Assembly (NCBI GenBank): GCA_965223425.1
Contig: OZ245003.1
Location: forward strand, 960,001 to 1,024,000
Direction of reading: 5' to 3'
Source of the DNA: Nitrosopumilus sp.
GTDB taxonomy: Archaea > Thermoproteota > Nitrososphaeria > Nitrososphaerales > Nitrosopumilaceae
Length of the DNA stretch: 64,000 bases
Both the position numbers and the translations under genes were made by a program. A model generated the notes under the pieces. That model saw only the letters and a list, made by a program, of their open reading frames with translations, was not told the origin of the DNA and searched no databases. Shown piece by piece: positions 11,901-39,852 of the stretch (its first letter is position 1; every line of letters begins with the position of its first letter).

Positions 11901-12214
11901 AATTTTTTGAAGAAAAAATTGGACAAATAGAAATTGTTCACAAAATTTCAGAGCCTGAGCGAAAACCAAACATATCTGATCTTCTTTATGAGCGAAAGAT
12001 TGACTTTATCATAAACATCCCTAGTACTTTGTCTTTAGAAAAATATGTTGGAATGCTGGATGATGAATATCAAATTCGCCGAAAGTCTTTGGAATTGGGA
12101 ATTCCTGTATTGACTACAATTGAATTGGCAGACTCTTTTGTGAAAACTTTGGAATGGTTAAAGGATAATCAAACCACCAAAGATCCAATCGAGTCTTATG
12201 ATAAAATAGAATAA
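8972..12214 (+). CDS. carB: Carbamoyl-phosphate synthase large subunit
   Basis: GSGAIKIGEAGEFDYSG, duplicated ATP-grasp halves, EINPRLSRSSALASKATG, C-terminal MGS domain. Confidence 0.97.
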   Translation: MPKNESLKKILVLGSGAIKIGEAGEFDYSGSQCLKAIREDGLKSVLINPNIATIQTDTRFADQVYLLPVNPEYVESIIEKERPDGIMLAYGGQTALNCGVKLEESDILKKYGVGVLGTQVKGIQSTEDRQLFKDSMKEAGVPVLKSKTVTNFDDAKKAAEALRYPVIIRVAYTLGGRGGGVAHNEIELHEIVERGLKASLVGQVLIEEYIGHWKQIEYEVMQDYDGNNVIVCNMENVLSMKVHTGDNIVVAPSQTIDNHEYHMLRSAALRATKHVGIVGECNIQYALDPDSDRYVAIEINPRLSRSSALASKATGYPLAYMSAKIGLGYNLSELVNRITKSTTACFEPSLDYIVCKHPRWDFAKFELVNRKLGPTMKSVGEVMAIGRTFEESLQKSIRMLDIGNDGLVLNRSNGKTYTEEEIESKLSHHDDLILYNVAVALKMGISVERIYKLSTIDPWFVEKIKNIIDIESKLKDSELDESLLWKAKKMGFSDKQIARSKDKTPDDVRDLRKKLGVLPSVKQIDTLAAEWPAVTNYLYLTYGGYSHDIEVSSDEKGIVVVGAGPYRIGSSVEFDWGTVNMVWGLQENGEKNISVVNCNPETVSTDYDICTRLYFEELTQERLLDITEFENPKGVITCVGGQTANNLTPGLAQHGINIMGTSADDVDRAEDRSKFSAELDKLHIQQPRWQAFSSLNEAKNFAQEVGFPVIVRPSYVLSGAAMKVVWSQDELKTYVKEATDVSPDHPVVISKFMLNSLEVDVDGISNGKEVVIGAIVEHIDSAGVHSGDAMMCIPPWRLNNKIIETINDYTKKIALTFNVKGPFNLQFLIHDNHVYVIELNIRASRSMPFVSKLVKTNLISLASKAILDKPLPKIPENKWQKIHNYGIKVPQFSFMQLDGADIALGVEMQSTGEAACFGNSFYDALSKGLTSVGYNLPDKGTALVTVGGATNKEKLVTTIAKLKHLGFKILATEHTAEFFEEKIGQIEIVHKISEPERKPNISDLLYERKIDFIINIPSTLSLEKYVGMLDDEYQIRRKSLELGIPVLTTIELADSFVKTLEWLKDNQTTKDPIESYDKIE

Positions 12215-12439
12215 TTTTAAAAAACATCAAACATAACTACACTAACAGTTAACGTGGCAGAAAAATTCTCAGATGATGAACCTGGCTAGGTATTAAGCAA
12301 CATGTATCAAAAAGTTCAAGACAACAAAAGCACAGATCAAAAAAAGAGCAAAACAAGTAATATATACAGGCCGTGAAGAAAATTATGAGATTAATCTAAA
12401 TTACGTAATGAAGAATTTTTTCTAAACTCAGAACTATAC

Positions 12440-13687
12440 CAGCTAAGCGAAATCTGCTCTAATTCGGGCCAAATCGGCTACAAAATGCAAACAGATCAAT
12501 GAGGGTACGACCCCATGATTTCTGTTGTTCACACAAAAAACCAGACAGGGCCGCGAACTGTTAAACAATCCACGCATATATGAAGACGTTGCAGACGGCG
12601 CCAAAAACATGCTTGCATGCGCCAACACATCAGACAGGTACAACGCAACGTTTGGACCAGATGATCTGAACTGCGGCATGCTAAAGGCTGCCACCATGAT
12701 TCTTCTGTAGCAGATGCGCAAAGGCGAAGGCACAAACGCTGCAGTACCCCGTCTGACAGGTGGATTGCATCGGCAATCAAGGGAATTGAGCAGGATGCAA
12801 TCCAGCACACGCTTGAAGGCCAGATAGCAAGGCATCTTGAAACCCTCAAAAGACTGGGCAGGTTTCCAAAAAAAGGACTGGACATGGCAATCGACTTGCA
12901 CCTCATACCGCGCTATGACAGGGTACCGGGGGCGGAGCTGACACGTTCCAAATACAAGAACGGAACCAAATACTTTGAGCGTTACATGAGTCCAGTGCGT
13001 AAATGACAAGATGCGTATCGTTCTTGCCGCATCATACCTGAAGATGCTTGAATCCGTGCCTGATTACGTGGATGCCGTCCTCAAAACCATGGCAGGGATG
13101 GGGGCATCAGGATACACCTGGCGTTGCTTGACCGTGAGTTCTTCTCAGTTGATGCGATAAGCAAGCTGCAGGAAAACAACGTAAAGTTTCTGATGCCGTG
13201 CAGGAACACGTACAACGTGGTGGCCGCCTGCGAGAGTTTGCACAGGGGAAAAGAGGAAAGATCTCAGGGAACGTAATTGAAAACAACCTGGGTTCTGCTG
13301 CTGAATATTCCATGATAATAACTGACAGAAAAAAGGCCAAAGACTCTGATGACCCAGAGGGAGGTATACATCGGGTTTGCAACAAACCATCCCGCAGTCA
13401 GGATCGAGGTCTATGCCAAAAGATGGGGGATAAAGATGAGTACGGCAAAATCGAGGAGTGCAGGGCCAAGACACGGATCACAGACATGGAATCGCGGATG
13501 CTGTGCTTTTACCATTCTCGGGTATTGTACAATGAATGGGTGATTGTCAGGGCACTGCTTTCTGATGGCACTGAAAGGCAGAGTGTCATGGCCATGCTGA
13601 CGTTTAAGGTGCAGCTGGAATCGCTTCCCATACGCCAATCCAAACCGCCTACATGATCTCAGGCTTGGGACACATTTCGCTTAGCTG
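12440..13687 (+). mobile_element. ISH3-family insertion sequence (decayed)
   Basis: Perfect 14-bp TIRs at 12440-12453 and 13674-13687 around a fragmented DDE transposase. Confidence 0.88.
12516..13656 (+). pseudogene. ISH3-family DDE transposase pseudogene, multiple frameshifts
   Basis: Motifs in shifting frames: MAIDLHLIPRYD, LTRSKYKNGTKYFERY, LLDREFFSVD, YIGFATN, YAKRWGI. Confidence 0.85.
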
Positions 13688-13694
13688 ACCTCTG

Positions 13695-13711
13695 AAAAAA
13701 ATATATAAATA
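13695..13711 (+). promoter_or_regulatory. Putative BRE/TATA promoter for the giant gene
   Basis: A-tract followed by TATATAAAT just inside the IS right end, about 210 nt upstream of the TTG start. Confidence 0.35.
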
Positions 13712-13920
13712 CCAAAACAAAAGCATCAAGTTGTTGAGTCACACCTTTCAGTTATCTGCTTTCAAGAAGCCGTCGCTAGCCGTATTGCGCTTATGTCATT
13801 CCTGCAGTAATCTTGCCTTCCCTGCCACAATGTTGCCTGACATCGGGGGGGGGGGTGGAGGAAGGATTAGCAGCAGCAGTAATGGTATTGGGAGAAGGAG
13901 AGTACAGGAGAGTCTGACAG

Positions 13921-16900
13921 TTGCGACGATTGATAAAACCGCCGTTGCTTGCAACGACAACAACGACAGCAGCAGCAATAGCGGCACTTGTTCTTCTGAT
14001 TCCCCTTTGCATTCCCCTTGCTGATGCTGCGATAGATTCGCCTGTTCCAGTCGCCTCCTTTGATGACGGAGACACCGTCACAGTCGGCATGACAAACAAG
14101 ACATTTGACGAGCTTGACCAAGCACATGACATCACCACGGTAAGGATAGGCACCGGCACGTACGCCCTGGTCGTATCATTAACTGACTCAGGTGTCCAGA
14201 TAATAGACATTACAGATCCCGCAAGCCCCGTCCCGACTGCCTCCTTTGAGGACGGGGACACAGTCGAAGTCGGCGGGACAAACAAGACATTTGACAAGCT
14301 TTTCAACGGACGGGACATCACCACGGTAAGGATAGGCTCCAGTACCTACGCCCTGGTCGCAGCAACCCTTGACCACGGCGTCCAGATAATAGACATTACA
14401 GATCCCGCAAACCCCGTCCCGACTGCCTCCTTTGAGGACGGGGACACAGTCGAAGTCGGCATGACAAACAAGACATTTGACGAGCTTAGGCAACCATATG
14501 GCATCACCACGGTAAGGATAGGCTCCAGTACCTACGCCCTGGTCGCAGCAAACCTTGATGACGGCGTCCAGATAATAGACATTACGGATCCCGCAAGCCC
14601 CGTCCCGACTGCCTCCTTTGAGGACGGGGACACAGTCGAAGTCGGCGGGACAAACAAGACATTTGACGAGCTTGATGGCGCACGGGGCATCACCACGGTA
14701 AGGATAGGCTCCAGTACCTACGCCCTGGTCGCAGCATACTTTGATGACGGCGTCCAGATAATAGACATTACGGATCCCGCAAGCCCCGTCCCGACTGCCT
14801 CCTTTGAGGACGGGGACACAGTCGAAGTCGGCGGGACAAACAAGACATTTGACGAGCTTGGGAAAGCATTTGGCATCACCACGGTAAGGATAGGCTCCAG
14901 CACCTACGCCCTGGTCGCAGCATACGTTGATGACGGCGTCCAGATAATAGACATTACGGATCCCGCAAGCCCCGTCCCGACTGCCTCCTTTGAGGACGGG
15001 GACACAGTCGAAGTCGGCGGGACAAACAAGACATTTGACGAGCTTGATGGCGCATTTGGCATCACCACGGTAAGGATAGGCTCCAGTACCTACGCCCTGG
15101 TCGCAGCATACTTTGATGACGGCGTCCAGATAATCAACATTACGGATCCCGCAAGCCCCGTCCCGACTGCCTCCTTTGAGGACGGGGACACAGTCGAAGT
15201 CGGCGGGACAAACAAGACATTTGACGAGCTTGATGGCGCACAGGGCATCACCGTAGTGGATATAGGTGCCAGCACCTACGCCCTGGTCGCATCATACGTT
15301 GATGACGGCGTCCAGATAATAGACATTACCAATCCCGCAATAGATCCCCCCAGGTTCGTCTCAGCCGAACTAGACGAATTAACTGGTGTGCTGAGCGTCA
15401 CCTTTGACAAGACAATCGACGCATCCAGCGTCGATGCCACAATGTTCCACATAAGAGAGCCCGAATCCATCACGGGAGGAGTGACCCTGTCTGCACCGGA
15501 GCTTGACACTGCCGCTATTGCTACTACTGACGGCACCGCGCTCTCATTTACGCTGACTGGCCCGAACCGCGACGCAGTCATCGCGCTAGATGACCCGCAG
15601 CTGGAGATAGGGGAGGGCGCCGTGGCCGACGCCAATGGCACCAAGATAACTGCAGCCTTTGATATACGGACTGCCAGGTTCGCCGAGTCTTTTGCTTTTG
15701 GGACGATAGATAATGGTGCCAGAGCCATCGCCTTCTCAAATGACGGCCTGAGGATGTTCCTGGCAGGCATCAATGGTGATTCTAACGCATACCAGTACGC
15801 CCTGCCTGCGGCATTTGACGTGTCAGGTGCCAGCCTTACCCGCTCTGTTACGCTTTCAGACGCTCCTTTCATAAACGGAATCGCCTTCTCAAATGACGGC
15901 CTAAGAATGTTTACGGTCAATAGGTTAACTGATACCGTATACCAGTACGACCTGCCTACAGCATTTGACGTGTCAGGCGCCAGCCTTGCTCAATCCCTCA
16001 ACATCCAATCTCAGCAGACAGGCCCAACTGACGTCGCCTTTTCAAACGACGGCCACAGTATGTTCGTGATAGGGGCTTTCGAATATAAGATAGACCGGTA
16101 CGACCTGCCTACAGCATTTAACGTGACAGGCGCCGAACACGTCGGCGTTTTCTCATTAGAACAAAGGATAGAGGGTAATGTGTATGGCCTTACCTTCTCA
16201 AACGACGGCCACAGGATGCTCGTTACATATGGACTGGGGGACTTCGCAACCAACGACTACAAATCCGTACACCAGTACGATCTGCCTGCAGCATTTAACA
16301 CGACAGGCGCCAGCCTTGTCGGCACCTTTGACCTCTCTCCACATGCGCCGAGATTGAGAGGCACCGCCTTCTCAAATGACGGCCTTGGGATGTTCAATAT
16401 AGACTCCTCTAACAGTACCGTACACCGGTACGACCTGAGGCTGCTCTACGACATAAACAGGCAGCCAGTCGCAGAGGCAGGCCCAAACCAGCACGTGCAG
16501 GAAAGAGACACGGTGACCCTTGACGGGACCAACTCGGCGGATCCTGATGACGGCGACACCACCCTGACGTACTCGTGGTCCCAGACATCCGGCTCCCCTG
16601 CCGTATCCCTGACAAACGCCAACACAACAAGCCCCACATTCACTGCACCGCAAACCGGCAGTACTGCCGCCCTAGAGTTCACGCTTACGGCAAGCGACTC
16701 CTCCTTGTCAAACGGCACTGACACGGTAACTGTCACAGTCTACGACGACCAGACAGTCTTTGCCAGGTCTGCCACGTACTATGAAAACCACGGCATCCTC
16801 GGCATAACCTTCAACAGGGACATCGATAGACTGCCAGGTATTTTATTTGACTTGTTTTCTATCCGCGAGTCCGGCTCTAATTCTGGCGGCTCGGATCTTG

Positions 16901-19900
16901 CCTCCTCTGAATGGCTGGAAAACACGGCAGCGCGCAGCACGATGATCTTCATGCTTGACCCGTCCACGGATGACGCAGTCAGGGCTTTGACATCCCCGCT
17001 GATTGACATAGAGGCTTTTGCCGTGTCTGGCACAAATGGCATCCCATTTATGTACGACCAAGTCGAACTGCCAGTCGTCAAAAGCGGCGCATTTCTTCCG
17101 CGGGTAACCACTGCTGTTGCCTCGGCCCAAAGCGAGATCACCGTGCGCTTTTTGTCCAACGTCGACACGGACATAACCAACGGCACGGGATGGTTCGTGG
17201 GCGCCTCCGTGGACGTGGGCCTGGAAGAAAACCTTGCCGTAGAGTCAAACTCGGATCCCGGCGGGATGACAGACACCATGACGCTTGCGCTAAACGGCTC
17301 GCTGCCAACAGGATTCAGGTCAGGTGCCATCTTCCTTGACTACCAGAGGCCGTCTGATGACGGCACCGGCATCTTCAACGGCACCGAATACCTGGGCAGC
17401 ACCAACCGCATCTTGCTAACTGACGGCATACCACCGGTAATAGTCAATGCCAGCGCAGCTTCTCCAACTGCCACGTCAATAACCCTGACCTTCTCAGAGA
17501 GGATCACAGGCAAGTCTGATGCCGAAAGCTTTTCGCTCTCGCGTACGGCAGACAGCGCCACCACGACGCCGGTGCCTGCAGTGGTGTCGCAGGTGGAAGC
17601 CGGCTCATCCCCCACCATCACGCTTAACCTTAACGGCACCATCGGCAACAACGACCTGGTTATCGGCTACAACCGGGATCTGGGAGGCGACAGCAGCATG
17701 GCAGACATTGCAGGCAACCCCGTGGCAAGCTTTGCAGACATACCGGTGGCCACGCCGCCTGCGGATCCCGTTCTGCCGCCACCACCGGAAGACGACAGCT
17801 ACGCGATAGATTCGCCTGTTCCAGTCGCCTCCATCACTGAAGGCCAGACCCATTCTAACGGCAAGACATTTGACGAGCTTGACGGCCCACGGGACATCAC
17901 CACCGTGGATATAGGTACCAGTACCTACGCCCTGGTCGTATCAGACCGCGAGCTCACTCCTTTCAACGGCGTCCAGATAATCAACATTACCAATCCCGAA
18001 AACCCTGCCCCCGTCGCCTCTATCACTGACGGCCAGACCCATTCTAACGGGAAGACGTTTGACGAGCTTAGCGGCCCACGGGGCATTACCACAGTAACTA
18101 TCGGCACCAGTACCTACGCCTTGGTCACAGCATACTTTGACCAAGGCGTCCAAATAATCAACATTACCAATCCCGCAAAACCCGTCCCGACAGCCTCCTT
18201 TGATGACGGGGACACCGTCCCAGTCGGCAATGCAACCCGGACATTTCACGAGCTTCGAGGTGCACAAGACATCACCACCGTAACTATCAGCACCAGCACG
18301 TACGCCCTGGTCACAGCAGGACTTGACGACGGCGTCCAAATAATCAACATTACCAATCCCGCAAAACCCGTCCCGACAGCCTCCTTTGATGACGGGGATC
18401 GCGTCACAGTAGACAATGCAAACAGGACATTTGACGAGCTTGACGGCGCACAAGCCATCACCACCGTAACTATCGGCACCAGCACGTACGCCCTGGTCGC
18501 AGCAGGATTTGACGACGGCGTTCAGATAATCGACATTACCAATCCCGCAAAACCCGTCCCGACAGCCTCCTTTGATGACGGGGATCGCGTCACAGTAGAC
18601 AATGCAAACAGGACATTTGACGAGCTTGACGGCGCACAAGCCATCACCACCGTAACTATCGGCACCAGCACGTACGCCCTGGTCGCAGCAGGATTTGACG
18701 ACGGCGTTCAGATAATCAACATTACCAATCCCGCAAGCCCCGTCCCGACAGCCTCCTTTGATGACGGGGATCGCGTCACAGTAGACAATGCAAACAGGAC
18801 ATTTGACGAGCTTGACGGCGCACAAGCCATCACCACCGTAACTATCGGCACCAGCACGTACGCCCTGGTCGCATCATTAGATGACGACGGCGTCCAGATA
18901 ATCGACATTACCAATCCCGCAAACCCCTTCCCGACAGCCTCCTTTGATGACGGGGACACCGTCAAAGTCGGCGGGACAAACAAGACATTTGACGAGCTTG
19001 ACGGCGCACGGGCCATCACCACCGTGGATATAGGTTCCAGCACGTACGCCCTGGTCGCATCACTCACTGACAACGGCGTCCAGATAGTCGGCATCTCGTC
19101 AAGATCTATTACAAACCAGCCCACTGTAGCCCCAACCCTCGTATCTGTTGAAAGGCACGACCCTGCCACACAGAGCACAAACGATACCACCCCGACCTTC
19201 AGGGCAACCTTCAGCAAGGCAGTAACCAACGTGGACACATCAGACTTTGAGACCGCAGGTGATGCCACAGCGACAGTCTCTGCTGTCACCCCGGTATCTG
19301 ATACGGTATACCACGTGGAGGTAAACGTGACTGCAGACGGCATAGTCAACCTTGGCATTGATGCAGGACACAACATCCAAGATGCCGCAGGCAACTCCCT
19401 GTCCGGTACTGAGCCTACCGATACAGACGAGCCATACACCATAGATACTGCTCCGCCAACCCTCCTGGCCGTTACAAGGATACACCCTGCAGCAGAAAAC
19501 ACAAACGATCGCAACCCGATCTTCAGGGTCATATTCGGCGAGGCAGTCACCAACGTGGACAAGGAAGACTTTGAGACCTTGGGCAATGCCACTTCAACAG
19601 TCTCTTCGGCCACCCGCATATTTGATACCCAATACGACGTGCTGGTAACGGTAACTGCAGACGGCACGGTCAACCTTGGCATTGATGCAGGACACAACAT
19701 CACAGATGTTGCAGGCAACGCCCTGTCAGACACGACACCTACCGGAGCAAACGAGCCATACACCATAGATACCGTTCAGCCAACCATCCTGTCCATTAAA
19801 AGGCATAACCCCCTCACAGAAAACACAACTGATTCCACCCCGACCTTCAGGGTAACCTTCAGCGAGGAGGTACTTGAGGTGGACAAGCCAGACTTTGCGA

Positions 19901-22900
19901 TCACAGACAGCAGCAGCGCCAACGCGACAGTCTCCACAGTCACCCCTGTACCCGGCAGTACGGTATACGACGTGGGGGTGACCGTAACTGCAAACGGCAC
20001 AGTCAGCCTTGTGCTTGCAGGATCACACTATATCATTGATACTGCAAGCAACTCCCTGTCTCCTGCGGATCCGCCCGTCAGCGAATCATACAACGTCTCC
20101 CTCCTCCCGCAGGCAGAAAACCGGCCTCCGACAATCGACCTAACCGGCGTTAACCCTGCAACTGCAGAAAGGTACGTCGCGTATACAGATGCCGGGGCAG
20201 CCTGCACCGATCCTGACGGCGATACCACAATGCTTGCCAGCTCCTCCAATGTGGACACGGACACAGTATCTTTGCCGGCATCTCCTTACCGGTACACCTA
20301 CTCGTGTACAGACCAACACGGGCTTGCCGCGACAAACAAGACCAGACTCGTCAGTGTGGAGGATACCGTGAAACCTGTGATTACCCTTATCGGCCCGGCA
20401 TCAGTACCGCTGACAGTGGGCGACACATACACGGAAGAAGGGGCAACCTGCACTGACTCTGGCCGTCTGCTTGGTGCTGCCAGTATCGGCGGCGCTACGG
20501 TGGACACGGCTGTCGTCAACGAGTACGATGTGGTGTATGCCTGCTCAGACGGGTACAACAACGCTATTCCGGTAACCAGGACCGTAACTGTTACAGAGCC
20601 CACGCCACCACCACCACCACCACCGGACGTCAACGTCCCCCCATCTGCGTCAATCAGCGCGCCTCCCCGGGCAGCAGAGGGAACGCAGGTAACCCTTGAC
20701 GGGAGCGGCTCTGCTGACACTGACGGCACCATACAATCATACAACTGGACTGCCAGCAACCCGGCAGTAGCCATCACCGGCAGCACCCAGCCAACTGCAT
20801 CATTTATTGCGCCCCAGGTCACAGAGGACACTTTTCTGGCCATCACGCTGAAGGTAACTGACGACGACGGCGCCACAAACTCTGCACAGCACAACATGAC
20901 CATAACCAACGTAAGCCCGCCACCTGACGACAGTGCCGCCCCGACGTTTACTGCCAGGACCGGCCCTGCCACAAACCAGATAACTGTCACCTTCTCCAAG
21001 AACGTCAACAGCACTGCTGACTCCCACGCAGCATGGGGCGTGGCAGGAAGCACGGTCACCGCAATCACCGGCCTTGACGGGACAGGCAATACTGCAACCC
21101 TGACGCTGCAAAGCCCGGTACAGCCGCCTGATGCAACGCCTGCCGTAACATACAATGCCGATGCGGGGAGCGTCTCAGATGCGGCAGGCAACGCGTTAGC
21201 TACTGCAACTGTCACCGCTACTGCGGGACATCCTGCAGGTCTTCACATCCACCTGATCGGCGATGCCTTCCTATACCACACATACGGGGAACCGTACACC
21301 GACAAGGGCGCCCTGTGCCATGACGCAGACGGAAACGACATAACTGACACCGGCGACTATGAAACCCTGCCGTACCTGAATCAGACGCAGACAATAAACG
21401 CCACCCTTCATGCAGATACCGTTCTTAATTTTACCCACCAATCCCAAAACGAGTACCGCCCCTTTGATCCGCAGGAGGTAACATACAAGTGTGCTACCTC
21501 GCCGTCTGAATTCGTAGAGGAGTCCAGGCAAGTAGCCCTGCGTGATGACACACCTCCTGAAATCCGACTAAACGGGCCACGCGACGTGGATCTGGAGATA
21601 GGCGAGACATTTGAGGAGACTGCCACATGCACTGACGCTCCTCTCAAATACCAGACAGAACTTCTAAACGCCGCATTTTATCTGACTTTTCGCATCTCTT
21701 TCCTCCCTGACGGGTACCAAGACACCGCAGGAGAGCACACGATAAGCTACACATGTTCGGACTCTAAAGGCAACGACGCAGAGGATACAAGCAGGACGCT
21801 TCATGTAGGCACGCCTGACAACACGCCACCCGTGCTTGCAGTCAACCCCGGCATAGTGACCACCCTGGCAAACGGCACGCATGTCGTACGGCAGGATGTC
21901 GGCTTTGCAGCAGCAGGTGACGGCGGCGGCCTGCAGTCCGCAGTATCATGCACCGATAACAGGGACAGCACCCCTGCAATCACGCTGGATCCTGCCACGG
22001 TGGACACCTCAGTTAGCGGCGCCCACACCATAACGTACTCCTGCACGGATGCTGCCGGCAACCCATCTAATGATATAACAGTAACCTGGGATTTCGGTCC
22101 TGCAGCCCCCGTGCTTGCAGTAACGCCCGCAGACACCCAAGTCACGCTGGCACTCGACGCGTCATACGAGATCCCCGCAGCATCCTGCACAGACCACAGG
22201 GACGGCGACATCACCGGCACCGGGATTGTAACTGTCATCTCGTCTGGAGGCCAGCCAGTCGACGAAATAGACACCTCCTCTGCAGGCACATACGGTATAA
22301 CGTACTCCTGCACGGACTCTGATGACAACACCTCAGAGCACAACGTGACAGTCACAATCCTGCCTGCCGTAGTTGACAGCACGCCGCTTATCGTAGTGCT
22401 AAACCCGCCTGAAATCATATTTGTTCCAGTCGGGGGCAGCTTTGCAGATGCTGATACCGGCGCCCTCTGCATTGATGGCCAGGGCAATATCATAGAAGGC
22501 AGAACCACCGTGGATGCCACCGCACTTGACACGGCCGTTCTTGGCAACCACACCGTGACGTACTCCTGCACGGTTTCTGAAGAAAACCCCCAGTCTAGCA
22601 CCATATCAAGGACAGTCAGCGTGTACGGATTCACCGTAAACGGAAACATCGCCGACTTTGCAACTGACATCACCACCTCTGATGACTACGAGGAAGGCAT
22701 AATCCAAAACATTACGAATATTGAGAATCCATACCAAAGCATAAAGTATTACGATACAGCCGGGCAAGACACCGACTCTTTTGACAATCAAACACGCCCG
22801 GCAGGAACCTATACCGTACAGTATACCGTGTCTACCCCAATGTCGTCCCCGCCCATAACCTACACCATCACAGAGACAGTAACCGTGGTAAACGCCACCA

Positions 22901-25695
22901 CGCAGCCAGACGGCAACACGCCCCCAATTGTGGCAATCAGCGTAGTACCTGAAGTAGAGGCAGCAGAGGGAACGCTGGTATCCCTTGACGGGACTAACTC
23001 GAGGGATGATGACGGCACCATATCATCATACGCGTGGACCACCGACGATGCGTCCATCGCAATAACTGATGCTGACCGGCCAACTGCATCATTTACGGCG
23101 CCTCAGGTCACAGAAGACACTCCTCTGCTCATCACGCTGCGTGTAACTGACAACGAAGGCGCTCCAGGCTCTGCACAGTATACCCTGATCATAACTGACA
23201 GCGAGTCTCCTGTAGTACCTGACACCACGCCTCCAACATTTACGGTAGACGGCCACACAGGCGACTTTGAGACGTCCCTAACAGAAGGCCAGACCTACAG
23301 GAACGGCAAGATAGATAACATCAACGAGACTGGCAGCCATCCGACCAGCACGGAGATAAGGTACTACAGCGGCACCGGCGATGTCATCACCACCACTGAC
23401 GAAAACAAGATCAGCTCCATTAACAATACCATGCCTGCCATCGGAGGCTACACCATACAGTACCGCGTCTCTGACTCGGCCGTTTCACCAAACACCCACA
23501 CAATCACAGAGACACTCACCGTGCGCGCACCTGCCACGGTAACCATAGGGGCAATCGTCTCGACTACCGGCTCCATCTCGTCACTTGGCATACCTGCAAA
23601 TGACGCCATACACCTGGCAGTAAATGACTTTAACGACAGATACCTTGCGCCAAAGGAGACCTCATGGAGGCTTGCAGTGTCTGGGTATGATGACGGGTCT
23701 ACTTCTGAGGGCGCAATTGCAGCACTGGAACTGCTTGCAGGCAGCAACATAACCTCCATTGTGGGGCCCCTCACAAGCGATGCGCTGTCTGCAGTAAAGG
23801 GCCACGCCCTGTTTGATGAGCCGCCAAGGCTTGCCATAAGCTACGCATCCACTGCGCCTGCGGAGGATCTCAAGCAGAAAGACGACCGCGTCTTTAGGAC
23901 AGTCCCTGATGATTCCAACATCGTCAGGGTATACGTCAGCCTCTTTGAGGCAGACTCTGTGGATTACGTGATTCCGGTGTTCCGCAACGACGCGTGGGGG
24001 ATAGCACTGAACCGGACCCTTGCAGATGAAATTGATGATCATAACAACAACAACAACAACAACAACGAAATAACCGTACACGGCGGAATACTGTACGACC
24101 CTGACACCGTGTCACTTTCTGCCAACACAACGCTTGCCTTGCTGAATGACACGCTAAGTCGGGATTCCGTCAGTGAAAAGGCCCCCGCAGTGGTGGTGTT
24201 CGGATTTAGCGAGACCCTTGACATACTCGACGAGGCTGCAGCCACTGCAAACCTGCCTGCAGCAAAGTGGTACGGTAGCGACGCCGTGGCGCCATCAAAG
24301 CTGCTTGAGGGTGATACCCCACAGGACGAGAATCGCAGGGCATTCCTTGAGCGCACCGACTATAACGTGCTCACCCTTGCAATAGACGAAAACGAGGCAA
24401 ACAAGAGGATAGACAGCTCTGTGGACAACGCTGACGTATACTCTTATGCGGCATACGACGCAGTATACATACTCGGCACTGCCATACACCTCAACGGCGG
24501 CCCTGCAGGCAATATGGTCAACGAGGGCCTGATTGGCAACATCGCGCAGGTAGCAGACAACACAAACGGGCACTACACAGACCCTGCCATGGGCAACACC
24601 GAGCTCAACGAGTACGGCGACCTGAAGCAGGCTGATTACTTTGTCCTCTCCCTTGATCCTGGCAACGACAGAACCCCCGCATCCTTTGAGCCAGAATTCC
24701 GGTATGATCACTCATCAGGCACCCTTGGGAGCCTTGTCTCCTCTGGCGGCGGTGGCAGCAGCGGAGACGTCTCTGCCCCCTCAATCCGCACGGGCTTTGA
24801 TGCAAACCAGTACCCCCTGGTATACGACGGAGTAAAGTACGGCCCTGACACGATTGACTCTCCCCACACTGCCACGGTACGCGCAGGCAGCGGCGAGAGG
24901 CTTTTCAGCACCCTCACAGTATACGAGGACGGCGGGGCGCAAAACGTGCGGCACGTCGACATGTTTGTCGCACACGACGGCAGGACAATACACAACGACG
25001 GCACGGAAACCCACGTGACATACGATTCAGGCAACGTCCGGATAACTGATCCGCACGGCCTGATTGCCAGCGCCACTGTGGATGCGTCTGCCATTGATGC
25101 CACAAAGGCGCAGTTTGAGTTTGCCATAACCTTTGCCAAGAAGGTTCCGCTCTCTGACGTGCTGTACCGCCTGTGGGACACCAGCAGAAACGCGCTTTAC
25201 ATCCACCTTGAGGACGCCCTTGTGGTGTCTGAGGGAAGGAAAGGCGGCAGCAGCAGTGGCGGCGGAGGCGGTGGTGGCAGCGGAGGCGGTAGCAGCAGCA
25301 GCAGCGGAGGCGGCAGCAGCAGCAGCAGCAGCAGCAGCAGTACCGCCACCCCAGCCACCGGCAGCGGCAACGGCACAACAACAACAACCACCACCACCGC
25401 TGGCAACGGCACCGCAGCTGACACTGCAGACAAGCAGCAGCAACAACAACCCCGACAGGGCTTTACCGCAGAACAGCTTGACACCCTAAAGCAGTGGGGC
25501 GGATTTGCGTCCCAGTCCGCATCTGACTCGCAGCTTTTAGCCCAGTTCGGAATAGAGGGCACCAGCATCCCCGCATACTTTAAGCAGACAGCAAAGTGGT
25601 TCCTCGATGCAGATGACGGCGATGGCGGCCTGACTGCGCAGGAGTTTGTCGCAGCGCTGTCGTACCTCGGGCAGCGCGGGCTGCTGCTAAACTAG
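13921..25695 (+). CDS. Giant (3924 aa) secreted multidomain surface protein: two LVIVD-like propellers, SNDG-repeat propeller, PKD/Ig-like and DUF5011-like domains, periplasmic-binding (LivJ-like) domain, thaumarchaeal C-terminal domain
   Basis: Uninterrupted 11.8-kb ORF; signal peptide ending ADA-A; AGGAG upstream of TTG; repeated GVQIIDITDP, AFSNDG, VTLDGxxSxD and YSCTD motifs; C-terminal IPAYFKQTAKWF...EFVAALSYL. Confidence 0.93.
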   Translation: MRRLIKPPLLATTTTTAAAIAALVLLIPLCIPLADAAIDSPVPVASFDDGDTVTVGMTNKTFDELDQAHDITTVRIGTGTYALVVSLTDSGVQIIDITDPASPVPTASFEDGDTVEVGGTNKTFDKLFNGRDITTVRIGSSTYALVAATLDHGVQIIDITDPANPVPTASFEDGDTVEVGMTNKTFDELRQPYGITTVRIGSSTYALVAANLDDGVQIIDITDPASPVPTASFEDGDTVEVGGTNKTFDELDGARGITTVRIGSSTYALVAAYFDDGVQIIDITDPASPVPTASFEDGDTVEVGGTNKTFDELGKAFGITTVRIGSSTYALVAAYVDDGVQIIDITDPASPVPTASFEDGDTVEVGGTNKTFDELDGAFGITTVRIGSSTYALVAAYFDDGVQIINITDPASPVPTASFEDGDTVEVGGTNKTFDELDGAQGITVVDIGASTYALVASYVDDGVQIIDITNPAIDPPRFVSAELDELTGVLSVTFDKTIDASSVDATMFHIREPESITGGVTLSAPELDTAAIATTDGTALSFTLTGPNRDAVIALDDPQLEIGEGAVADANGTKITAAFDIRTARFAESFAFGTIDNGARAIAFSNDGLRMFLAGINGDSNAYQYALPAAFDVSGASLTRSVTLSDAPFINGIAFSNDGLRMFTVNRLTDTVYQYDLPTAFDVSGASLAQSLNIQSQQTGPTDVAFSNDGHSMFVIGAFEYKIDRYDLPTAFNVTGAEHVGVFSLEQRIEGNVYGLTFSNDGHRMLVTYGLGDFATNDYKSVHQYDLPAAFNTTGASLVGTFDLSPHAPRLRGTAFSNDGLGMFNIDSSNSTVHRYDLRLLYDINRQPVAEAGPNQHVQERDTVTLDGTNSADPDDGDTTLTYSWSQTSGSPAVSLTNANTTSPTFTAPQTGSTAALEFTLTASDSSLSNGTDTVTVTVYDDQTVFARSATYYENHGILGITFNRDIDRLPGILFDLFSIRESGSNSGGSDLASSEWLENTAARSTMIFMLDPSTDDAVRALTSPLIDIEAFAVSGTNGIPFMYDQVELPVVKSGAFLPRVTTAVASAQSEITVRFLSNVDTDITNGTGWFVGASVDVGLEENLAVESNSDPGGMTDTMTLALNGSLPTGFRSGAIFLDYQRPSDDGTGIFNGTEYLGSTNRILLTDGIPPVIVNASAASPTATSITLTFSERITGKSDAESFSLSRTADSATTTPVPAVVSQVEAGSSPTITLNLNGTIGNNDLVIGYNRDLGGDSSMADIAGNPVASFADIPVATPPADPVLPPPPEDDSYAIDSPVPVASITEGQTHSNGKTFDELDGPRDITTVDIGTSTYALVVSDRELTPFNGVQIINITNPENPAPVASITDGQTHSNGKTFDELSGPRGITTVTIGTSTYALVTAYFDQGVQIINITNPAKPVPTASFDDGDTVPVGNATRTFHELRGAQDITTVTISTSTYALVTAGLDDGVQIINITNPAKPVPTASFDDGDRVTVDNANRTFDELDGAQAITTVTIGTSTYALVAAGFDDGVQIIDITNPAKPVPTASFDDGDRVTVDNANRTFDELDGAQAITTVTIGTSTYALVAAGFDDGVQIINITNPASPVPTASFDDGDRVTVDNANRTFDELDGAQAITTVTIGTSTYALVASLDDDGVQIIDITNPANPFPTASFDDGDTVKVGGTNKTFDELDGARAITTVDIGSSTYALVASLTDNGVQIVGISSRSITNQPTVAPTLVSVERHDPATQSTNDTTPTFRATFSKAVTNVDTSDFETAGDATATVSAVTPVSDTVYHVEVNVTADGIVNLGIDAGHNIQDAAGNSLSGTEPTDTDEPYTIDTAPPTLLAVTRIHPAAENTNDRNPIFRVIFGEAVTNVDKEDFETLGNATSTVSSATRIFDTQYDVLVTVTADGTVNLGIDAGHNITDVAGNALSDTTPTGANEPYTIDTVQPTILSIKRHNPLTENTTDSTPTFRVTFSEEVLEVDKPDFAITDSSSANATVSTVTPVPGSTVYDVGVTVTANGTVSLVLAGSHYIIDTASNSLSPADPPVSESYNVSLLPQAENRPPTIDLTGVNPATAERYVAYTDAGAACTDPDGDTTMLASSSNVDTDTVSLPASPYRYTYSCTDQHGLAATNKTRLVSVEDTVKPVITLIGPASVPLTVGDTYTEEGATCTDSGRLLGAASIGGATVDTAVVNEYDVVYACSDGYNNAIPVTRTVTVTEPTPPPPPPPDVNVPPSASISAPPRAAEGTQVTLDGSGSADTDGTIQSYNWTASNPAVAITGSTQPTASFIAPQVTEDTFLAITLKVTDDDGATNSAQHNMTITNVSPPPDDSAAPTFTARTGPATNQITVTFSKNVNSTADSHAAWGVAGSTVTAITGLDGTGNTATLTLQSPVQPPDATPAVTYNADAGSVSDAAGNALATATVTATAGHPAGLHIHLIGDAFLYHTYGEPYTDKGALCHDADGNDITDTGDYETLPYLNQTQTINATLHADTVLNFTHQSQNEYRPFDPQEVTYKCATSPSEFVEESRQVALRDDTPPEIRLNGPRDVDLEIGETFEETATCTDAPLKYQTELLNAAFYLTFRISFLPDGYQDTAGEHTISYTCSDSKGNDAEDTSRTLHVGTPDNTPPVLAVNPGIVTTLANGTHVVRQDVGFAAAGDGGGLQSAVSCTDNRDSTPAITLDPATVDTSVSGAHTITYSCTDAAGNPSNDITVTWDFGPAAPVLAVTPADTQVTLALDASYEIPAASCTDHRDGDITGTGIVTVISSGGQPVDEIDTSSAGTYGITYSCTDSDDNTSEHNVTVTILPAVVDSTPLIVVLNPPEIIFVPVGGSFADADTGALCIDGQGNIIEGRTTVDATALDTAVLGNHTVTYSCTVSEENPQSSTISRTVSVYGFTVNGNIADFATDITTSDDYEEGIIQNITNIENPYQSIKYYDTAGQDTDSFDNQTRPAGTYTVQYTVSTPMSSPPITYTITETVTVVNATTQPDGNTPPIVAISVVPEVEAAEGTLVSLDGTNSRDDDGTISSYAWTTDDASIAITDADRPTASFTAPQVTEDTPLLITLRVTDNEGAPGSAQYTLIITDSESPVVPDTTPPTFTVDGHTGDFETSLTEGQTYRNGKIDNINETGSHPTSTEIRYYSGTGDVITTTDENKISSINNTMPAIGGYTIQYRVSDSAVSPNTHTITETLTVRAPATVTIGAIVSTTGSISSLGIPANDAIHLAVNDFNDRYLAPKETSWRLAVSGYDDGSTSEGAIAALELLAGSNITSIVGPLTSDALSAVKGHALFDEPPRLAISYASTAPAEDLKQKDDRVFRTVPDDSNIVRVYVSLFEADSVDYVIPVFRNDAWGIALNRTLADEIDDHNNNNNNNNEITVHGGILYDPDTVSLSANTTLALLNDTLSRDSVSEKAPAVVVFGFSETLDILDEAAATANLPAAKWYGSDAVAPSKLLEGDTPQDENRRAFLERTDYNVLTLAIDENEANKRIDSSVDNADVYSYAAYDAVYILGTAIHLNGGPAGNMVNEGLIGNIAQVADNTNGHYTDPAMGNTELNEYGDLKQADYFVLSLDPGNDRTPASFEPEFRYDHSSGTLGSLVSSGGGGSSGDVSAPSIRTGFDANQYPLVYDGVKYGPDTIDSPHTATVRAGSGERLFSTLTVYEDGGAQNVRHVDMFVAHDGRTIHNDGTETHVTYDSGNVRITDPHGLIASATVDASAIDATKAQFEFAITFAKKVPLSDVLYRLWDTSRNALYIHLEDALVVSEGRKGGSSSGGGGGGGSGGGSSSSSGGGSSSSSSSSSTATPATGSGNGTTTTTTTTAGNGTAADTADKQQQQQPRQGFTAEQLDTLKQWGGFASQSASDSQLLAQFGIEGTSIPAYFKQTAKWFLDADDGDGGLTAQEFVAALSYLGQRGLLLN
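14029..15340 (+). repeat. 7 x 186-bp (62-aa) coding tandem repeat, propeller array 1
   Basis: GACATTTGAC recurs at 14100, 14286, 14472... (186-nt spacing). Confidence 0.95.
15661..16450 (+). repeat. Five diverged AFSNDG-type propeller repeats
   Basis: IAFSNDGLRMF x2, VAFSNDGHSMF, LTFSNDGHRML, TAFSNDGLGMF, each followed by Q/R-Y-x-L. Confidence 0.85.
17803..19095 (+). repeat. 7-unit coding tandem repeat, propeller array 2
   Basis: Same unit family as array 1; opens with the same 30 nt (GCGATAGATTCGCCTGTTCCAGTCGCCTCC); units 4-6 nearly identical at 186-nt spacing. Confidence 0.95.
25243..25449 (+). repeat. Trinucleotide low-complexity linker (Gly/Ser, Thr, Gln runs)
   Basis: (GGC)n, (AGC)n, (ACA/ACC)n, (CAG/CAA)n. 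Confidence 0.85.
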
Positions 25696-26061
25696 GGACG
25701 CCAAAAGGCACCACCTGCCAGTCAAAGACAGATGCCCGCCGCAGATCGCCGGGAACGCGGCCAGGATCCGCTTGTCTGGCACCGCGCACACAAGGTTTTA
25801 TCAAACCCCTGTGCAGTCCCCAGTTGAGCCTGCAACCGGATTGCGGCACATCATCATCATCATCCCATATGCGTTGTTTTCCCTGGCCGTTCCAAACAGC
25901 AATATTCTTTTCAAGATATTTGGCTGCAGTATTCTAGATGCTTTGCAGGCTGCCAAGAGGGGAGACTCTCCACTGCAGAATCACACACGCCCAGAGTCTG
26001 CAGGATCGAATCACTGGTTACAGTTCAGAGGAGAACCTGGTACTTTTGTGAAGGCTTTCTC

Positions 26062-26159
26062 CAGCTAAGTGAAATGAAATGTGCCCTAACTAAGGAACCA
26101 CTCTCATGTGCAGAACCAACCGCTGATCTGATCTCAGATTTGAGGCATTTCGCTTAGCT
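26062..26159. mobile_element. ~100-bp MITE with the ends of the 12440-13687 ISH3 element
   Basis: Left end CAGCTAAGTGAAAT (1 mismatch to TIR), right end ATTTCGCTTAGCT; subterminal AACCGC...TGATCTCAG shared with the IS 3' end. Confidence 0.85.
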
Positions 26160-27228
26160 AGACCTGATCTGTAATTACTAACAAAACCTGACGTTTCACC
26201 AAACTGATTCCTTGTTACGTCATGGTATCACAACGAAATCGCGCGTCTTCAGCTTGTAGTTGATCAGGCCGCAGATTATGGCATTGATGCAGTCATACCT
26301 GCACAGTCTGTTCCTAAACTTGTCCCTCATTATGCCGAATTTCTTGATCCTTGAGATGACATGCTCCACCAGTACCCTTGCTCTGGACAGCTCCCGGTTG
26401 AATTCCTTCTGCGCATCATCAAGCTTGCCGCCCCTTGGCTTCTTGTACGGGATCAACACGTCAAGCTCCGGATAGTCCTTCCGTATCCCCTGATATCCAA
26501 GATCCACAAGGATTTTCAGATCTCCTGAAAGTTTTGGGCACTTTGACTTGAAGACAGAATAGTCATGCCTGCTTCCAGGCGAGTGCGGCGTCCTGTGCAT
26601 AATCATGCCGTCTGCGTTTACAACGTACTGTGTCTTGACCGTATGCATCTTCTTTTTGCCCGAATAGTGTGTCTTTCTCATGGACTTGTTCTTGGGCCTT
26701 TGAATCTGCTGCTCTGATGCGTCAATGATTGCGTGCAGCCCAGGAAAGGCGCATGCCAGCTCCCGAATGTCTGATATCTGTCTGGTCTCTGCAAGCTTTT
26801 TGTCAGGCAGTGACAGTGCAGATTTTATGGCAGGCTCCATGTATCGTATGCCGGTGCTGACATTTGACTGGCTCAGGTCAAAAAGCAGGCTCAGGAGACC
26901 CTGTGTGACGTATGTCCTGTAGTGGATCAGTGCCATCAGGATTCTGTCCCTGCGGCAGTGTTTGAACCTGCGCCCTGCGCCGATGTCTCGGATTCTGTTA
27001 TTCCTGGAGAGGCGTCTTTCCTCCGTTATCTTGTACTGTGACTCTATCTCCGGGCACAGATCATAAAACTGCCCGGGGGTAACTCCCGTCATGGACAGGA
27101 ATAATTTTGGTTTTTTTGCCAGCTTTTTGTGGTTTAACATGACATGCATGGCATTTTGCCTGTTTTGGATCTAGTTGCGAACAAATATCTGGAAAATGGT
27201 AAAATTATGTTAATAACGGATAGGGTCT
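26160..27228 (-). mobile_element. IS5-family (ISL2/DDE_Tnp_4-type) insertion sequence
   Basis: Imperfect 18-bp TIRs (14/18; 26160-26177, 27211-27228); 3-bp TSD GCT at 26157-26159 and 27229-27231. Confidence 0.85.
26220..27149 (-). CDS. ISL2/HARBI-like DDE transposase, apparently intact
   Basis: IIDASEQQIQRP, YSGKKKMHTVKTQ, PGSRHD, DLGYQG, RVLVEHVISRIKKF. Confidence 0.92.
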   Translation of the reverse strand: MHVMLNHKKLAKKPKLFLSMTGVTPGQFYDLCPEIESQYKITEERRLSRNNRIRDIGAGRRFKHCRRDRILMALIHYRTYVTQGLLSLLFDLSQSNVSTGIRYMEPAIKSALSLPDKKLAETRQISDIRELACAFPGLHAIIDASEQQIQRPKNKSMRKTHYSGKKKMHTVKTQYVVNADGMIMHRTPHSPGSRHDYSVFKSKCPKLSGDLKILVDLGYQGIRKDYPELDVLIPYKKPRGGKLDDAQKEFNRELSRARVLVEHVISRIKKFGIMRDKFRNRLCRYDCINAIICGLINYKLKTRDFVVIP

Positions 27229-37262: not shown

Positions 37263-37634
37263 ATGCAAGACGCAATTAGAGACAACGCGTTTCTGTTTGC
37301 GATAGTTGTATCAGGAATCGTGATTCTCGGCTTTGGATATGTTCCTCCGCACTCAGAGATGCTAATCGCGCTGGGAGCTGCCTTTATTATTGCAGGTGCT
37401 GTAGGCATATACATGATGCTCGCAACAAGACAGGTAGCCAGAAAGCTGCATGAGAGGTTCAACGAGCAAAACGACATCCTCAAGGAAATAGCATCGTCTC
37501 AGAAGGAAATAGCATCGTCTCAGAAGGAAATGACATCATCTCAGAAGGAAATGACATCGTCTCAAAAACAAAACCATTCAGAGATGATGGGTATCCTTAA
37601 GAGCATAAGCAATACGCTGGAGAAAAAGCTTTAG
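37263..37634 (+). CDS. Two-TM membrane protein with heptad-repeat coiled coil
   Basis: Two hydrophobic helices then (KEIASSQ)2(KEMTSSQ)2; ATG 37263 preferred over 37167. Confidence 0.75.
   Translation: MQDAIRDNAFLFAIVVSGIVILGFGYVPPHSEMLIALGAAFIIAGAVGIYMMLATRQVARKLHERFNEQNDILKEIASSQKEIASSQKEMTSSQKEMTSSQKQNHSEMMGILKSISNTLEKKL
37482..37565 (+). repeat. 4 x 21-bp coding tandem repeat
   Basis: AAGGAAATAGCATCGTCTCAG x2 plus two variants. Confidence 0.92.
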
Positions 37635-37714: not shown

Positions 37715-38188
37715 CTAGTCTTTGTGATCAAGTTTGTTGTTGACCTGACCAAGTGATTCGACAATGTTGTCCTGAGACTTTGCGATGTTGTCCTGAGACT
37801 TTGCGATGTTGTCCTGAGACTTTGCGATGTTGTCCTGAGACTTTGCGATGTTGTCCTGGAGATCACCAAGTAATTTGGCAATGTTGTCCTGAGACCTTGC
37901 TATCCTCTCAGTTGACTCGGAGAGCTTTATCAGCGCCTTTCTATTCTCTATTCCCACGTCATGTATTGCCTCCTTGATGCTAGCTCCGATATCCATTGTA
38001 GTCCAAGACATTAGTATTCCTACGAATCCGACGATAATAAAGGCTATGCCCTCGCTTAGGAGTCTTTGGTCTACTAGCTGGCTCAGTGTAATCAAGGATA
38101 TACCAACTGCGATCATTGCAACAAATATGATGTGCTGTCGTCGAATCAGACCGGTTTTTATTTTGGTTGTTGTGTCTTTTTCTTGCAT
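37715..38188 (-). CDS. Two-TM membrane protein with heptad-repeat coiled coil
   Basis: Two hydrophobic helices then (QDNIAKS)n; ATG 38188 preferred over 38209. Confidence 0.75.
   Translation of the reverse strand: MQEKDTTTKIKTGLIRRQHIIFVAMIAVGISLITLSQLVDQRLLSEGIAFIIVGFVGILMSWTTMDIGASIKEAIHDVGIENRKALIKLSESTERIARSQDNIAKLLGDLQDNIAKSQDNIAKSQDNIAKSQDNIAKSQDNIVESLGQVNNKLDHKD
37764..37858 (-). repeat. 4.5 x 21-bp perfect coding tandem repeat
   Basis: ATGTTGTCCTGAGACTTTGCG x4 plus partial; a further variant at about 37881-37900. Confidence 0.93.
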
Positions 38189-38486: not shown

Positions 38487-39852
38487 CAGTAGTTCCCAGA
38501 TGTAGATTTGTGCCCAGATGTAGGTTTATGCCCAGATGCCGGTGCGTTACCGCATAATAACTGCAATGCAAAGATCCAGATTAGGCTACGGCGTGCAATA
38601 TGTCATGAAAGTCGAATTACAAGACGAACTGATCGCACGCCAGTACAATATAACATCAAACCGGTTTAAAATCCTGCGCTCGTCGTTTCAAAAGCTTGGC
38701 ATGCCAATGTCTGAGAGGCACAACGCCGTATACGGATGCGGCGACATACTGGACGTGCTAATCAGGGCGTCTGAGAGAAACACGTTTGTAGAATCCCTCG
38801 TACGGCACAACAGGCTTCAAGACACGGGTGCACGTACGCCTGATGCAGACCTGGTCATGTCTGCAGTCCGTGGCGTCAAACCGGCAGACGTGCAGGCCTG
38901 GTGTGCAAGGACGCTGGCACGCACGGTGCGGCACGCCCGCCATACAGGAATGCTGCAGGACATCGACGCCATTGCAATAGACGTTACGGACATACCATAC
39001 CATGGGGAGCAGCTGCAGGAGCATACAAGAAAGTCGCGTCCAAAGGCAGGAACATCCACGTTTCTCTCGTATGTCGCAGTGCACGGAGTCGGCAGGGACT
39101 CCTCGCAGATTGTCCTGGAATCGCAGCTGCTGCCGGCAAAGGAGAAACTGGCCGATTTTATAGCCAAAACACGCACGAAAATCCTCAGAGGAGGGGGCGC
39201 ACACTCAAAGACTGTGTTCCTGTACGACCGCGCCTTTTACAACGTTGACTGCATGACAGAGGCAGGAAAGGGCGGGTGCCGCTACATTATGCCTGTCATC
39301 ATGAACTCCAAGATCAAGAGGATAGTCAAGCTGTATGAGGGCAGAAAGGCAAACCAGGTATCGCAGCAGTCAATGACCAACAAAGACGGCGTAACTGTGA
39401 CCTACAACCTTGTAATTGTCAAAAGAGACAGGAAGAAGAAGAAGAAGGAAGAGGAGGAAGAGGAGCAATACATTGCGTTTGCAACAAACATTCCCATCAG
39501 GAGTGCCACAGAGCCATGACAGGCATCATACCGGAGCAGTACCGCAAGATGGGGCATCGAGACGGGACTTCGCGTCATAAAGGAGATCATGGGCAGGACA
39601 TGCAGCAACTCCCTGTCTGTGAGGCTGCTGATGTTTTACCTGCCGCTGCTGCTGTACAACCTGTGGAGGATTGCCAGGTTCTGCCTTGATGCGGGAAAGA
39701 GGCATGGAAGAGTGTCTTCTGCGGGAAAAAAACTCACCATGGCGTTGTTTATCGTGTACATTACAAGCAGAAACGAGTTGTTTGTCAATGATCGAGGCAA
39801 GTAGAACCGATGCCAGTTGCGGTTGCGGTAAATCCACATCTGGGAACTACTG
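38487..39852 (+). mobile_element. ISH3-family insertion sequence (second lineage)
   Basis: 23-bp TIRs with 1 mismatch (CAGTAGTTCCCAGATGTAGATTT; 39830-39852); 4-bp TSD ATGT at 38483-38486 and 39853-39856. Confidence 0.92.
38536..39804 (+). pseudogene. ISH3-family transposase, disrupted near the catalytic E motif
   Basis: IAIDVTDIPYHG, YDRAFY, YIAFATNI, then stop at 39517-39519; IPEQYRK in a shifted frame and RWGIETG back in the first frame. Confidence 0.85.

Follow-up and report, generated by a model that had tools for sequence, protein, structure and literature searches.

LVIVD repeats were defined by Adindla et al. (2004, PMC2447325) and have been described as components of surface proteins in sponge-associated Thaumarchaeota by Haber et al. 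(2021, PMC7848895); those parts of the two papers that were available mention neither homogeneity of the repeat scaffold nor variability of its loops. In the HNWD/NWD family of Podospora anserina (het-d, het-e), the highly conserved WD40 repeats of ten genes evolve in concert within and between genes, and four codons of the interaction face are under positive selection, yielding 55 combinations among 69 repeats (Paoletti et al. 2007, PMC1805685). Pereira and Lupas (2022, PMC9218822) describe, for many propeller families, blades that are almost identical and share bases specific to their array; the term LVIVD has 0 occurrences in the main text of that paper. Here we analyse a stretch of 64,000 nucleotides from Nitrosopumilus sp. 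(assembly GCA_965223425.1, contig OZ245003.1, positions 960,001 to 1,024,000; hereafter the window), and in it a giant gene for a protein of 3924 amino acids. Near its N-terminal end this protein carries seven tandem LVIVD repeats (array 1), the predicted blades of a β-propeller (propeller 1) in which a nearly constant frame is combined with variable loops.

Array 1 has a period of 186 bp, with 6.9 copies, 91% matches and zero indels between positions 14053 and 15340 of the window (Tandem Repeats Finder); the coordinates of this and the other features are collected in Table 1. Translation confirmed the 186-bp units, the near-constant scaffold and all fourteen loop peptides listed in a preliminary description of the window. 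From unit 1 to unit 7, loop A reads DQAHD, FNGRD, RQPYG, DGARG, GKAFG, DGAFG and DGAQG, and loop B reads VSLTDS, AATLDH, AANLDD, AAYFDD, AAYVDD, AAYFDD and ASYVDD. The seven units had been called near-identical, which is correct for units 2 to 7 (mutual DNA identity of 86–97%) and not for unit 1, the closure blade, whose identity to the remaining units is just 73–76%. Array 1 is thus composed of six near-identical blades and one diverged first blade. According to the codon table, units 2 to 6 vary only at codons 4, 21, 28, 30–34, 43 (a synonymous change), 51–54, 59/60 and 62. The clustering of variable bases in the loops far exceeds chance: 18 of the 35 variable bases of units 2 to 7 fall within the 30 loop bases, where 5.6 would be expected (hypergeometric p=2.4e-8), and the same is true of 17 of the 25 variable bases of units 2 to 6 (p=1.4e-10).

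When array 1 was compared in isolation with the Pfam LVIVD profile (PF08309), a score of 39.7 bits was obtained in four stretches (cut-off 20.2, E=3e-10); with the whole 3924-aa protein the score was 18.3 bits, under the cut-off. LVIVD was matched by 18 of the 22 aligned relatives, and Pfam EPTP by 13 of them. In a HMMER search against 1.84 billion representatives, 3226 proteins reached E≤1e-3, of which 572 also reached E≤1e-30; most of them are very long. A search of a collection of genome contigs with the single protein gave no confirmed relative. Most of the large homologs carry PF08309 (word-indexed search), and one of the homologs, from a Cenarchaeum symbiont, is titled 'LVIVD repeat-containing protein' in its source. 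The AlphaFold2 model of array 1, obtained with the 22-row alignment, has a mean predicted local distance difference test score (pLDDT) of 97.0 and a predicted TM-score (pTM) of 0.93, and every unit shows the same six-strand pattern. Foldseek against the Protein Data Bank (PDB) returned propellers only, with probability 1.00. The top match was the EPTP domain of LGI1 (PDB 5y2z and 9kzc, TMt 0.81), WD40 propellers were also among the top matches, and the Sphingobium phosphotriesterase Sb-PTE (5hrm) was eighth in the ranking. Both LGI1 EPTP and 5hrm are seven-bladed propellers. A sequence search of the PDB with array 1 yielded sub-significant matches only, those to 5hrm and 5ioj (E=0.019) extending over the motif from strand C to strand D. 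The units of array 1 are LVIVD repeats and, as modelled, the blades of a seven-bladed β-propeller, the fold proposed in the preliminary description and borne out here by the AlphaFold2 model and the Foldseek matches.

As assigned by DSSP on the model, each unit runs through strand D (residues 6–12), an extra hairpin (16–19 and 22–25), loop A (30–34), strand A (32–40), a two-residue turn, strand B (43–50), loop B (51–54) and strand C (55–60). The limits of the repeat unit do not coincide with those of the structural blade, and hence the first strand of the array completes the last blade in the manner of the Velcro closure that is classical in propellers; this closure accounts for the difference of unit 1 at its start. 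The tight hairpin of strands A and B has loop A ahead of it and loop B behind it, so that the two loops must be neighbours at one end of the sheet. Given that the ring is pseudo-symmetric, the 14 loops would all lie on one face. The face formed by the D–A and B–C connections is the conventional 'top' of propellers, normally used for binding. The location of both variable loops on one face, as first proposed, is therefore upheld at the level of the strand topology of a predicted model.

The propeller of array 1 belongs to a family within its own genome (2.64 Mb in two contigs, 99.99% complete). Using one blade as query, tblastn detected 112 blades in 16 arrays of exactly seven, which are located in 12 open frames of 1483–7840 codons. 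Among 98 blades there are 96 distinct pairs of loop A and loop B, a count in which the anchor rule mis-parsed some rows belonging to arrays 11 and 12 and found no anchor in one unit of array 0. In the genus sample, 6 of 24 other genomes have any match, and the present genome has the most.

The proportions of synonymous (pS) and nonsynonymous (pN) differences among units 2 to 7 of array 1 are 0.063 and 0.031 in the scaffold, and 0.178 and 0.360 in the loops; the loop pN/pS is about 2, and the scaffold pS of units 2 to 6 is 0.03. Loop pN amounts to 5.8 times scaffold pS. The loops are thus more divergent than the synonymous scaffold sites, as the preliminary description had presumed. Loop pN also exceeded scaffold pS in each of the 11 arrays scored, with ratios of 1.4–6.3, five further arrays having too few 62-codon units to be scored. 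When 112 within-array pairs from 14 non-redundant arrays were pooled, pN was 3.2–3.9 times scaffold pS at codons 30, 31 and 33 and 3.4–3.8 times at codons 51 and 52, the two codons with the highest entropy in 54 units of the other arrays. Outside both loops, raised values were obtained at codons 39 (2.6 times scaffold pS), 21 (2.5) and 16 (2.0). Per-position entropies of array 1 and of these 54 units are correlated, with a Spearman coefficient of 0.66. Since the same positions are variable across LVIVD arrays, loop variability is the norm of the family and not a device of array 1. Nonsynonymous and synonymous events (N:S), counted by hand from the codon table, were 18:1 in the loops versus 7:6 in the scaffold (Fisher p=0.010).

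Of 54 units, 33 have their nearest scaffold relative within their own array, 11 at the same blade position of a different array and 10 at another position of a different array; all 6 scored units of array 1 have theirs within array 1, at 94–99% identity. Judged from these comparisons, concerted evolution of the blades is common, although not complete. The homogenisation of the scaffold that had been proposed is borne out by these relatives and by a scaffold pS of 0.03–0.06. Recombination has also acted between genes. A paralog of the giant gene is located 438 kb away (C1:535759-547494), and the two copies differ at 1058 of 12514 aligned columns (8.5% mean divergence). One tract is identical in both (Table 1), and the 226 bp immediately upstream of it contain 15 differences. 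An identity of 982 bp at this mean divergence cannot be due to chance, which shows recent conversion between the two genes. The paralog has exactly the same 14 loops as array 1, and this speaks against fast continuous change of the loops. In array 2, the second LVIVD array of the same gene, which the preliminary description did not mention, units 4 and 5 are 99.5% identical including their loops, and a third blade has loop A in common with them; the paralog's array 2 carries three different loop pairs at those blade positions. This looks like fresh homogenisation of whole blades, in which loops would have been overwritten.

The domain order of the giant protein is: putative signal peptide, LVIVD propeller 1, immunoglobulin-like (Ig-like) domain, SGL-type propeller, PKD domain, LVIVD propeller 2, Ig-like and PKD repeats, ANF_receptor-type ligand-binding domain, Gly/Ser/Thr-rich linker and conserved C-terminal module. 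The Ig-like domain that follows propeller 1 is a weak match; bacterial-surface Ig-like domains are present in the protein according to Pfam. Besides two windows near residue 2808, residues 1–36 form the sole hydrophobic segment of the protein (Kyte-Doolittle), and the leader would be cleaved after an Ala-Asp-Ala motif. Eleven of the 12 giant genes have this leader ahead of the propeller (tblastn). The N-terminal leader and the Ig-like and PKD domains suggest a cell-surface or secreted protein, and propeller 1 would be exported with it and occupy its tip.

Three further observations concern the body of the giant gene. Behind propeller 2, a 324-bp tandem repeat at 19176-19867 (2.1 copies, 78% matches) codes for modules of the Ig-like type (Big_12). 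Eight consecutive Asn codons lie near residue 3390 (~23900-24000), inside the ANF_receptor-like region, and are kept in the paralog and in P0036. The C-terminal module (~95 aa, 25396-25692) has a weak EF-hand-like motif and is common to nine giant genes at 90–100% identity; it may anchor the giant proteins to the cell.

We consider it likely, with good confidence, that propeller 1 forms the head, N-terminal and probably distal, of a giant surface protein that is secreted and adhesin-like, and that its frame is homogenised and its binding face variable. Recombination between blades, by gene conversion or unequal exchange, would keep the frame near-identical even at silent sites, the requirement for ring closure would hold the number of blades at seven, and conversion between paralogous genes would move whole stretches of blades. 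Conversion would keep sweeping the blades, and selection, or time, would restore or preserve the differences of the loops. The residues that precede strand A and those that join strands B and C would then stay blade-specific on the usual binding face of propellers, each head presenting its own fixed, inherited binding surface. Selection is the probable cause of the retained loop differences, and by analogy with other propellers the heads presumably function in binding.

Several points weigh against this explanation. The placement and exposure of the variable residues were derived from strand topology and from general knowledge of propellers, and variable positions are also present at codons 4, 39 and 41–42, which belong to the C–D turn, strand A or the A–B turn. 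Recent amplification of one blade could give the same picture for array 1. When the loop N:S count was compared with a neutral share of 0.22, the binomial p was only 0.057. Loop pS is raised as well (0.18 vs 0.06 in the scaffold), which suggests that the excess in the loops is partly a matter of age, that is, of escape from homogenisation, and not of rate alone. The preliminary description had coupled homogenisation with diversifying selection. The former is sustained, whereas the latter, at a loop pN/pS near 2 and with this binomial p, is suggestive only: diversifying selection on the loops is likely on the codon comparisons, and not proven.

The amplification just mentioned would consist of one recent step from a single blade, followed by fast loop change under positive selection and without continuing conversion between blades. 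It would account for the scaffold pS of merely 0.03 in units 2 to 6 and for residues specific to the array that occur in all inner blades, such as Glu at codons 12 and 18, residues of this type being an argument for independent amplification in the available text of Pereira and Lupas (2022, PMC9218822); array 1 also lacks the blade-1 and blade-7 signatures common to other arrays. Nevertheless, we regard such an origin as unlikely, although it keeps some real weight, because seven units are present in all 16 arrays, because conversion is directly visible between the paralogs and inside array 2, and because the first and last blades of several arrays keep position-specific signatures, as would be left by an ancestral seven-blade array homogenised from within. 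In addition, a loop pS three times that of the scaffold suggests that the loops are older than the scaffold, not merely faster. A trivial origin of the near-identity, by mis-assembly or collapse of the units, is barely credible. Short-read unitigs do break inside array 1. When contigs of four runs from four studies were inspected over 13600-16200, the array was covered by short unitigs only, many of which fit two places, and unitig differences at 14462-14493 appear to be cross-mapped from another array, the changed codons fitting array 3 blade 1 (by eye, unaligned). However, the array lies inside a 2.51-Mb contig and in a frame that is open across 3924 codons, the number of seven units recurs in all arrays of the genome, the array of the paralog is found with the same loops in a second assembly (P0006, contig of 258,836 bp), and unitigs of two runs match parts of array 1 without any difference.

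The loops could instead be diversified by a programme, namely a diversity-generating retroelement or, in the manner of antigenic variation, an exchange of cassettes between the 16 arrays. The 16 arrays with their 96 distinct loop pairs are possible donors, the conversion tract of 982 bp between genes 438 kb apart shows that exchange occurs, and the loops A of array 3 blade 1 and array 4 blade 3 both end in Pro-Tyr-Gly. We nonetheless hold this to be very unlikely, given that the candidate donors are all full-length genes with their own leaders and not silent cassettes, that the paralog has the same 14 loops, that the loop changes affect all four bases and not adenines alone, and that no RVT_1 reverse transcriptase was found in the 99.99% complete genome, in a search whose control was positive in three known genomes. 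A diversity-generating retroelement was rejected on the last two grounds, the template repeat not having been searched separately. The 16 arrays of this genome gave no evidence of a cassette-type variation system, nor any sign of a programmed mutator. The gene of array 1 is complete and open; in somatically assembled receptors of the variable lymphocyte receptor (VLR) type, individual cells complete an incomplete germline gene with copies of flanking cassettes. The designation of array 1 as a tunable or variable receptor is not supported, in view of the loops shared with the paralog, the constant seven units, the lack of a reverse transcriptase and the family-wide variability of the loops. In a wider form of the idea, to which we give only an outside chance, the 16 heads would be a recombining repertoire in which ectopic conversion moves blades and loops, and the cells of one population would differ in the faces that they display; if true, this would be a surface-variation system in an ammonia-oxidising archaeon, and GC-biased conversion would explain the high GC at third codon positions (GC3, 0.60–0.66) of the giant genes. 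Finally, propeller 1 could be an enzyme like the Sphingobium phosphotriesterase, its nearest solved relative in sequence, given the weak match to 5hrm/5ioj on the strand C to strand D motif and the eighth place of 5hrm in Foldseek. This is highly improbable: that match is below significance and reflects a structural motif only, variability is highest at the residues that face the channel entrance, whereas an active site would be conserved, and 16 copies are carried on giant multi-domain proteins of predicted surface type. A binding head with a homogenised frame is thus the explanation that we retain for propeller 1.

The giant gene has a GC content of 55–57%, versus 36–39% in its flanks, and a GC3 of 0.62; the GC3 of all 12 giant genes contrasts with a median of 0.34 for 859 other long frames. 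This richness could reflect a GC-rich donor or GC-biased gene conversion. On the 2.51-Mb contig, 16% of the 2-kb windows have a GC of at least 48%; they form 94 runs, the longest of which are mostly giant genes. The second contig (C2, 123 kb, GC 47%) differs in composition from C1 and may be a foreign or extrachromosomal element. The block common to both paralogs is bordered by mobile elements (Table 1). The insertion sequence-like (IS-like) element on the left has at least 8 further copies of at least 900 bp, at 94–98% identity, spread across the genome, and its open reading frame (ORF) fragments matched no Pfam family. Rfam gave no match on the whole window or on 12100-14000. CdvC/Vps4 is encoded within the window and an archaeal AmoA on the same contig, which identifies the organism as an ammonia-oxidising archaeon. 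Elsewhere in the window, two distinct 21-bp tandem repeats about 200 bp apart (37482-37564, 4.0 copies, 93%; 37764-37858, 4.5 copies, 100%) adjoin a GC-rich transposase-like gene at 38536-39519.

Table 1. Features of the giant gene, its LVIVD arrays and its borders, in positions of the window.
Feature	Position	Strand	Evidence or remarks
IS-like element	12440..13687	.	1.25 kb, 17-nt terminal inverted repeats, without long intact frame here; left border of duplicated block
Block common to both paralogs	13695..26159	+	12.5 kb, 91.7% identity; 300-bp windows mosaic, 72-100%
Tract identical to paralog	13919..14900	+	982 bp; begins at start codon; spans blades 1 to 5 with loops
Giant ORF, 3924 aa	13921..25695	+	ORF list, Pfam matches
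N-terminal signal peptide or anchor, aa 1-36	13921..14028	+	Kyte-Doolittle scan
LVIVD array 1	14029..15330	+	Seven in-frame units of 186 bp (7 x 62 codons), within the 3924-aa ORF
Loop A, codons 30-34 of each unit	14116-14130, 14302-14316, 14488-14502, 14674-14688, 14860-14874, 15046-15060, 15232-15246	+	Just before innermost strand A
Loop B, codons 50-54 of each unit	14176-14190, 14362-14376, 14548-14562, 14734-14748, 14920-14934, 15106-15120, 15292-15306	+	Joins strands B and C
Second propeller kind, SGL/lactonase-like	15700..16480	+	Pfam SGL 6.6e-10; repeated Phe-Ser-Asn-Asp-Gly motif
LVIVD array 2, same gene	17803..19110	+	Seven units
DDE_Tnp_4 transposase gene	26220..27149	-	Pfam 8.6e-31; right border of block

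Compared with known systems, array 1 agrees with the LVIVD family (PF08309) in its profile, in its probable cell-surface context and in the arrangement of tandem arrays in archaeal surface proteins; its unit has 62 aa, in contrast with the 42 aa of the Pfam model, because a two-strand hairpin is inserted between strands D and A. The best structural matches, LGI1 EPTP and 5hrm, have 9–15% sequence identity to it and lack the extra hairpin; the former is a domain of a human protein and the latter an enzyme, and neither is a giant microbial surface protein. As in the highly repetitive propellers, for example the WRAP domain of Nostoc punctiforme Npun_R6612, the DNA of the blades is near-identical, array-specific bases occur in all blades and nonsynonymous exceeds synonymous change between blades (PMC9218822, available text); unlike in those propellers, conversion between paralogs is directly evidenced here and the first blade has diverged.

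Among working analogues HNWD comes closest, and the locus of array 1 resembles it without being a member of that family. Both evolve in concert within and between paralogs, and both have diverse codons on the interaction face, here with 96 loop pairs in 98 blades. The differences are that LVIVD is not WD40, that a predicted extracellular giant protein of an archaeon stands against a cytoplasmic NLR-type receptor of a fungus, and that the number of units is fixed at seven in all 16 arrays here and highly variable in HNWD (PMC1805685, available text). A mutator like repeat-induced point mutation (RIP) is lacking at the present locus, and positive selection is suggestive only here. By Pfam, the giant protein contains no NLR/STAND architecture (NACHT or similar NTPase plus effector) and surface-type domains only. 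The 16 different heads of one genome are candidate molecules for attachment to host, matrix or particles, and fourteen defined loops on a rigid scaffold would offer a clean natural example for the mapping of specificity. Neither the repeat family nor its way of evolving, with concerted repeats and a variable face, is new, and no new kind of mechanism is revealed. The LVIVD heads of giant archaeal surface proteins can be added to the fungal WD40 immune receptors and the cyanobacterial propellers, the best-known cases of repeats that evolve in concert and keep a variable face.

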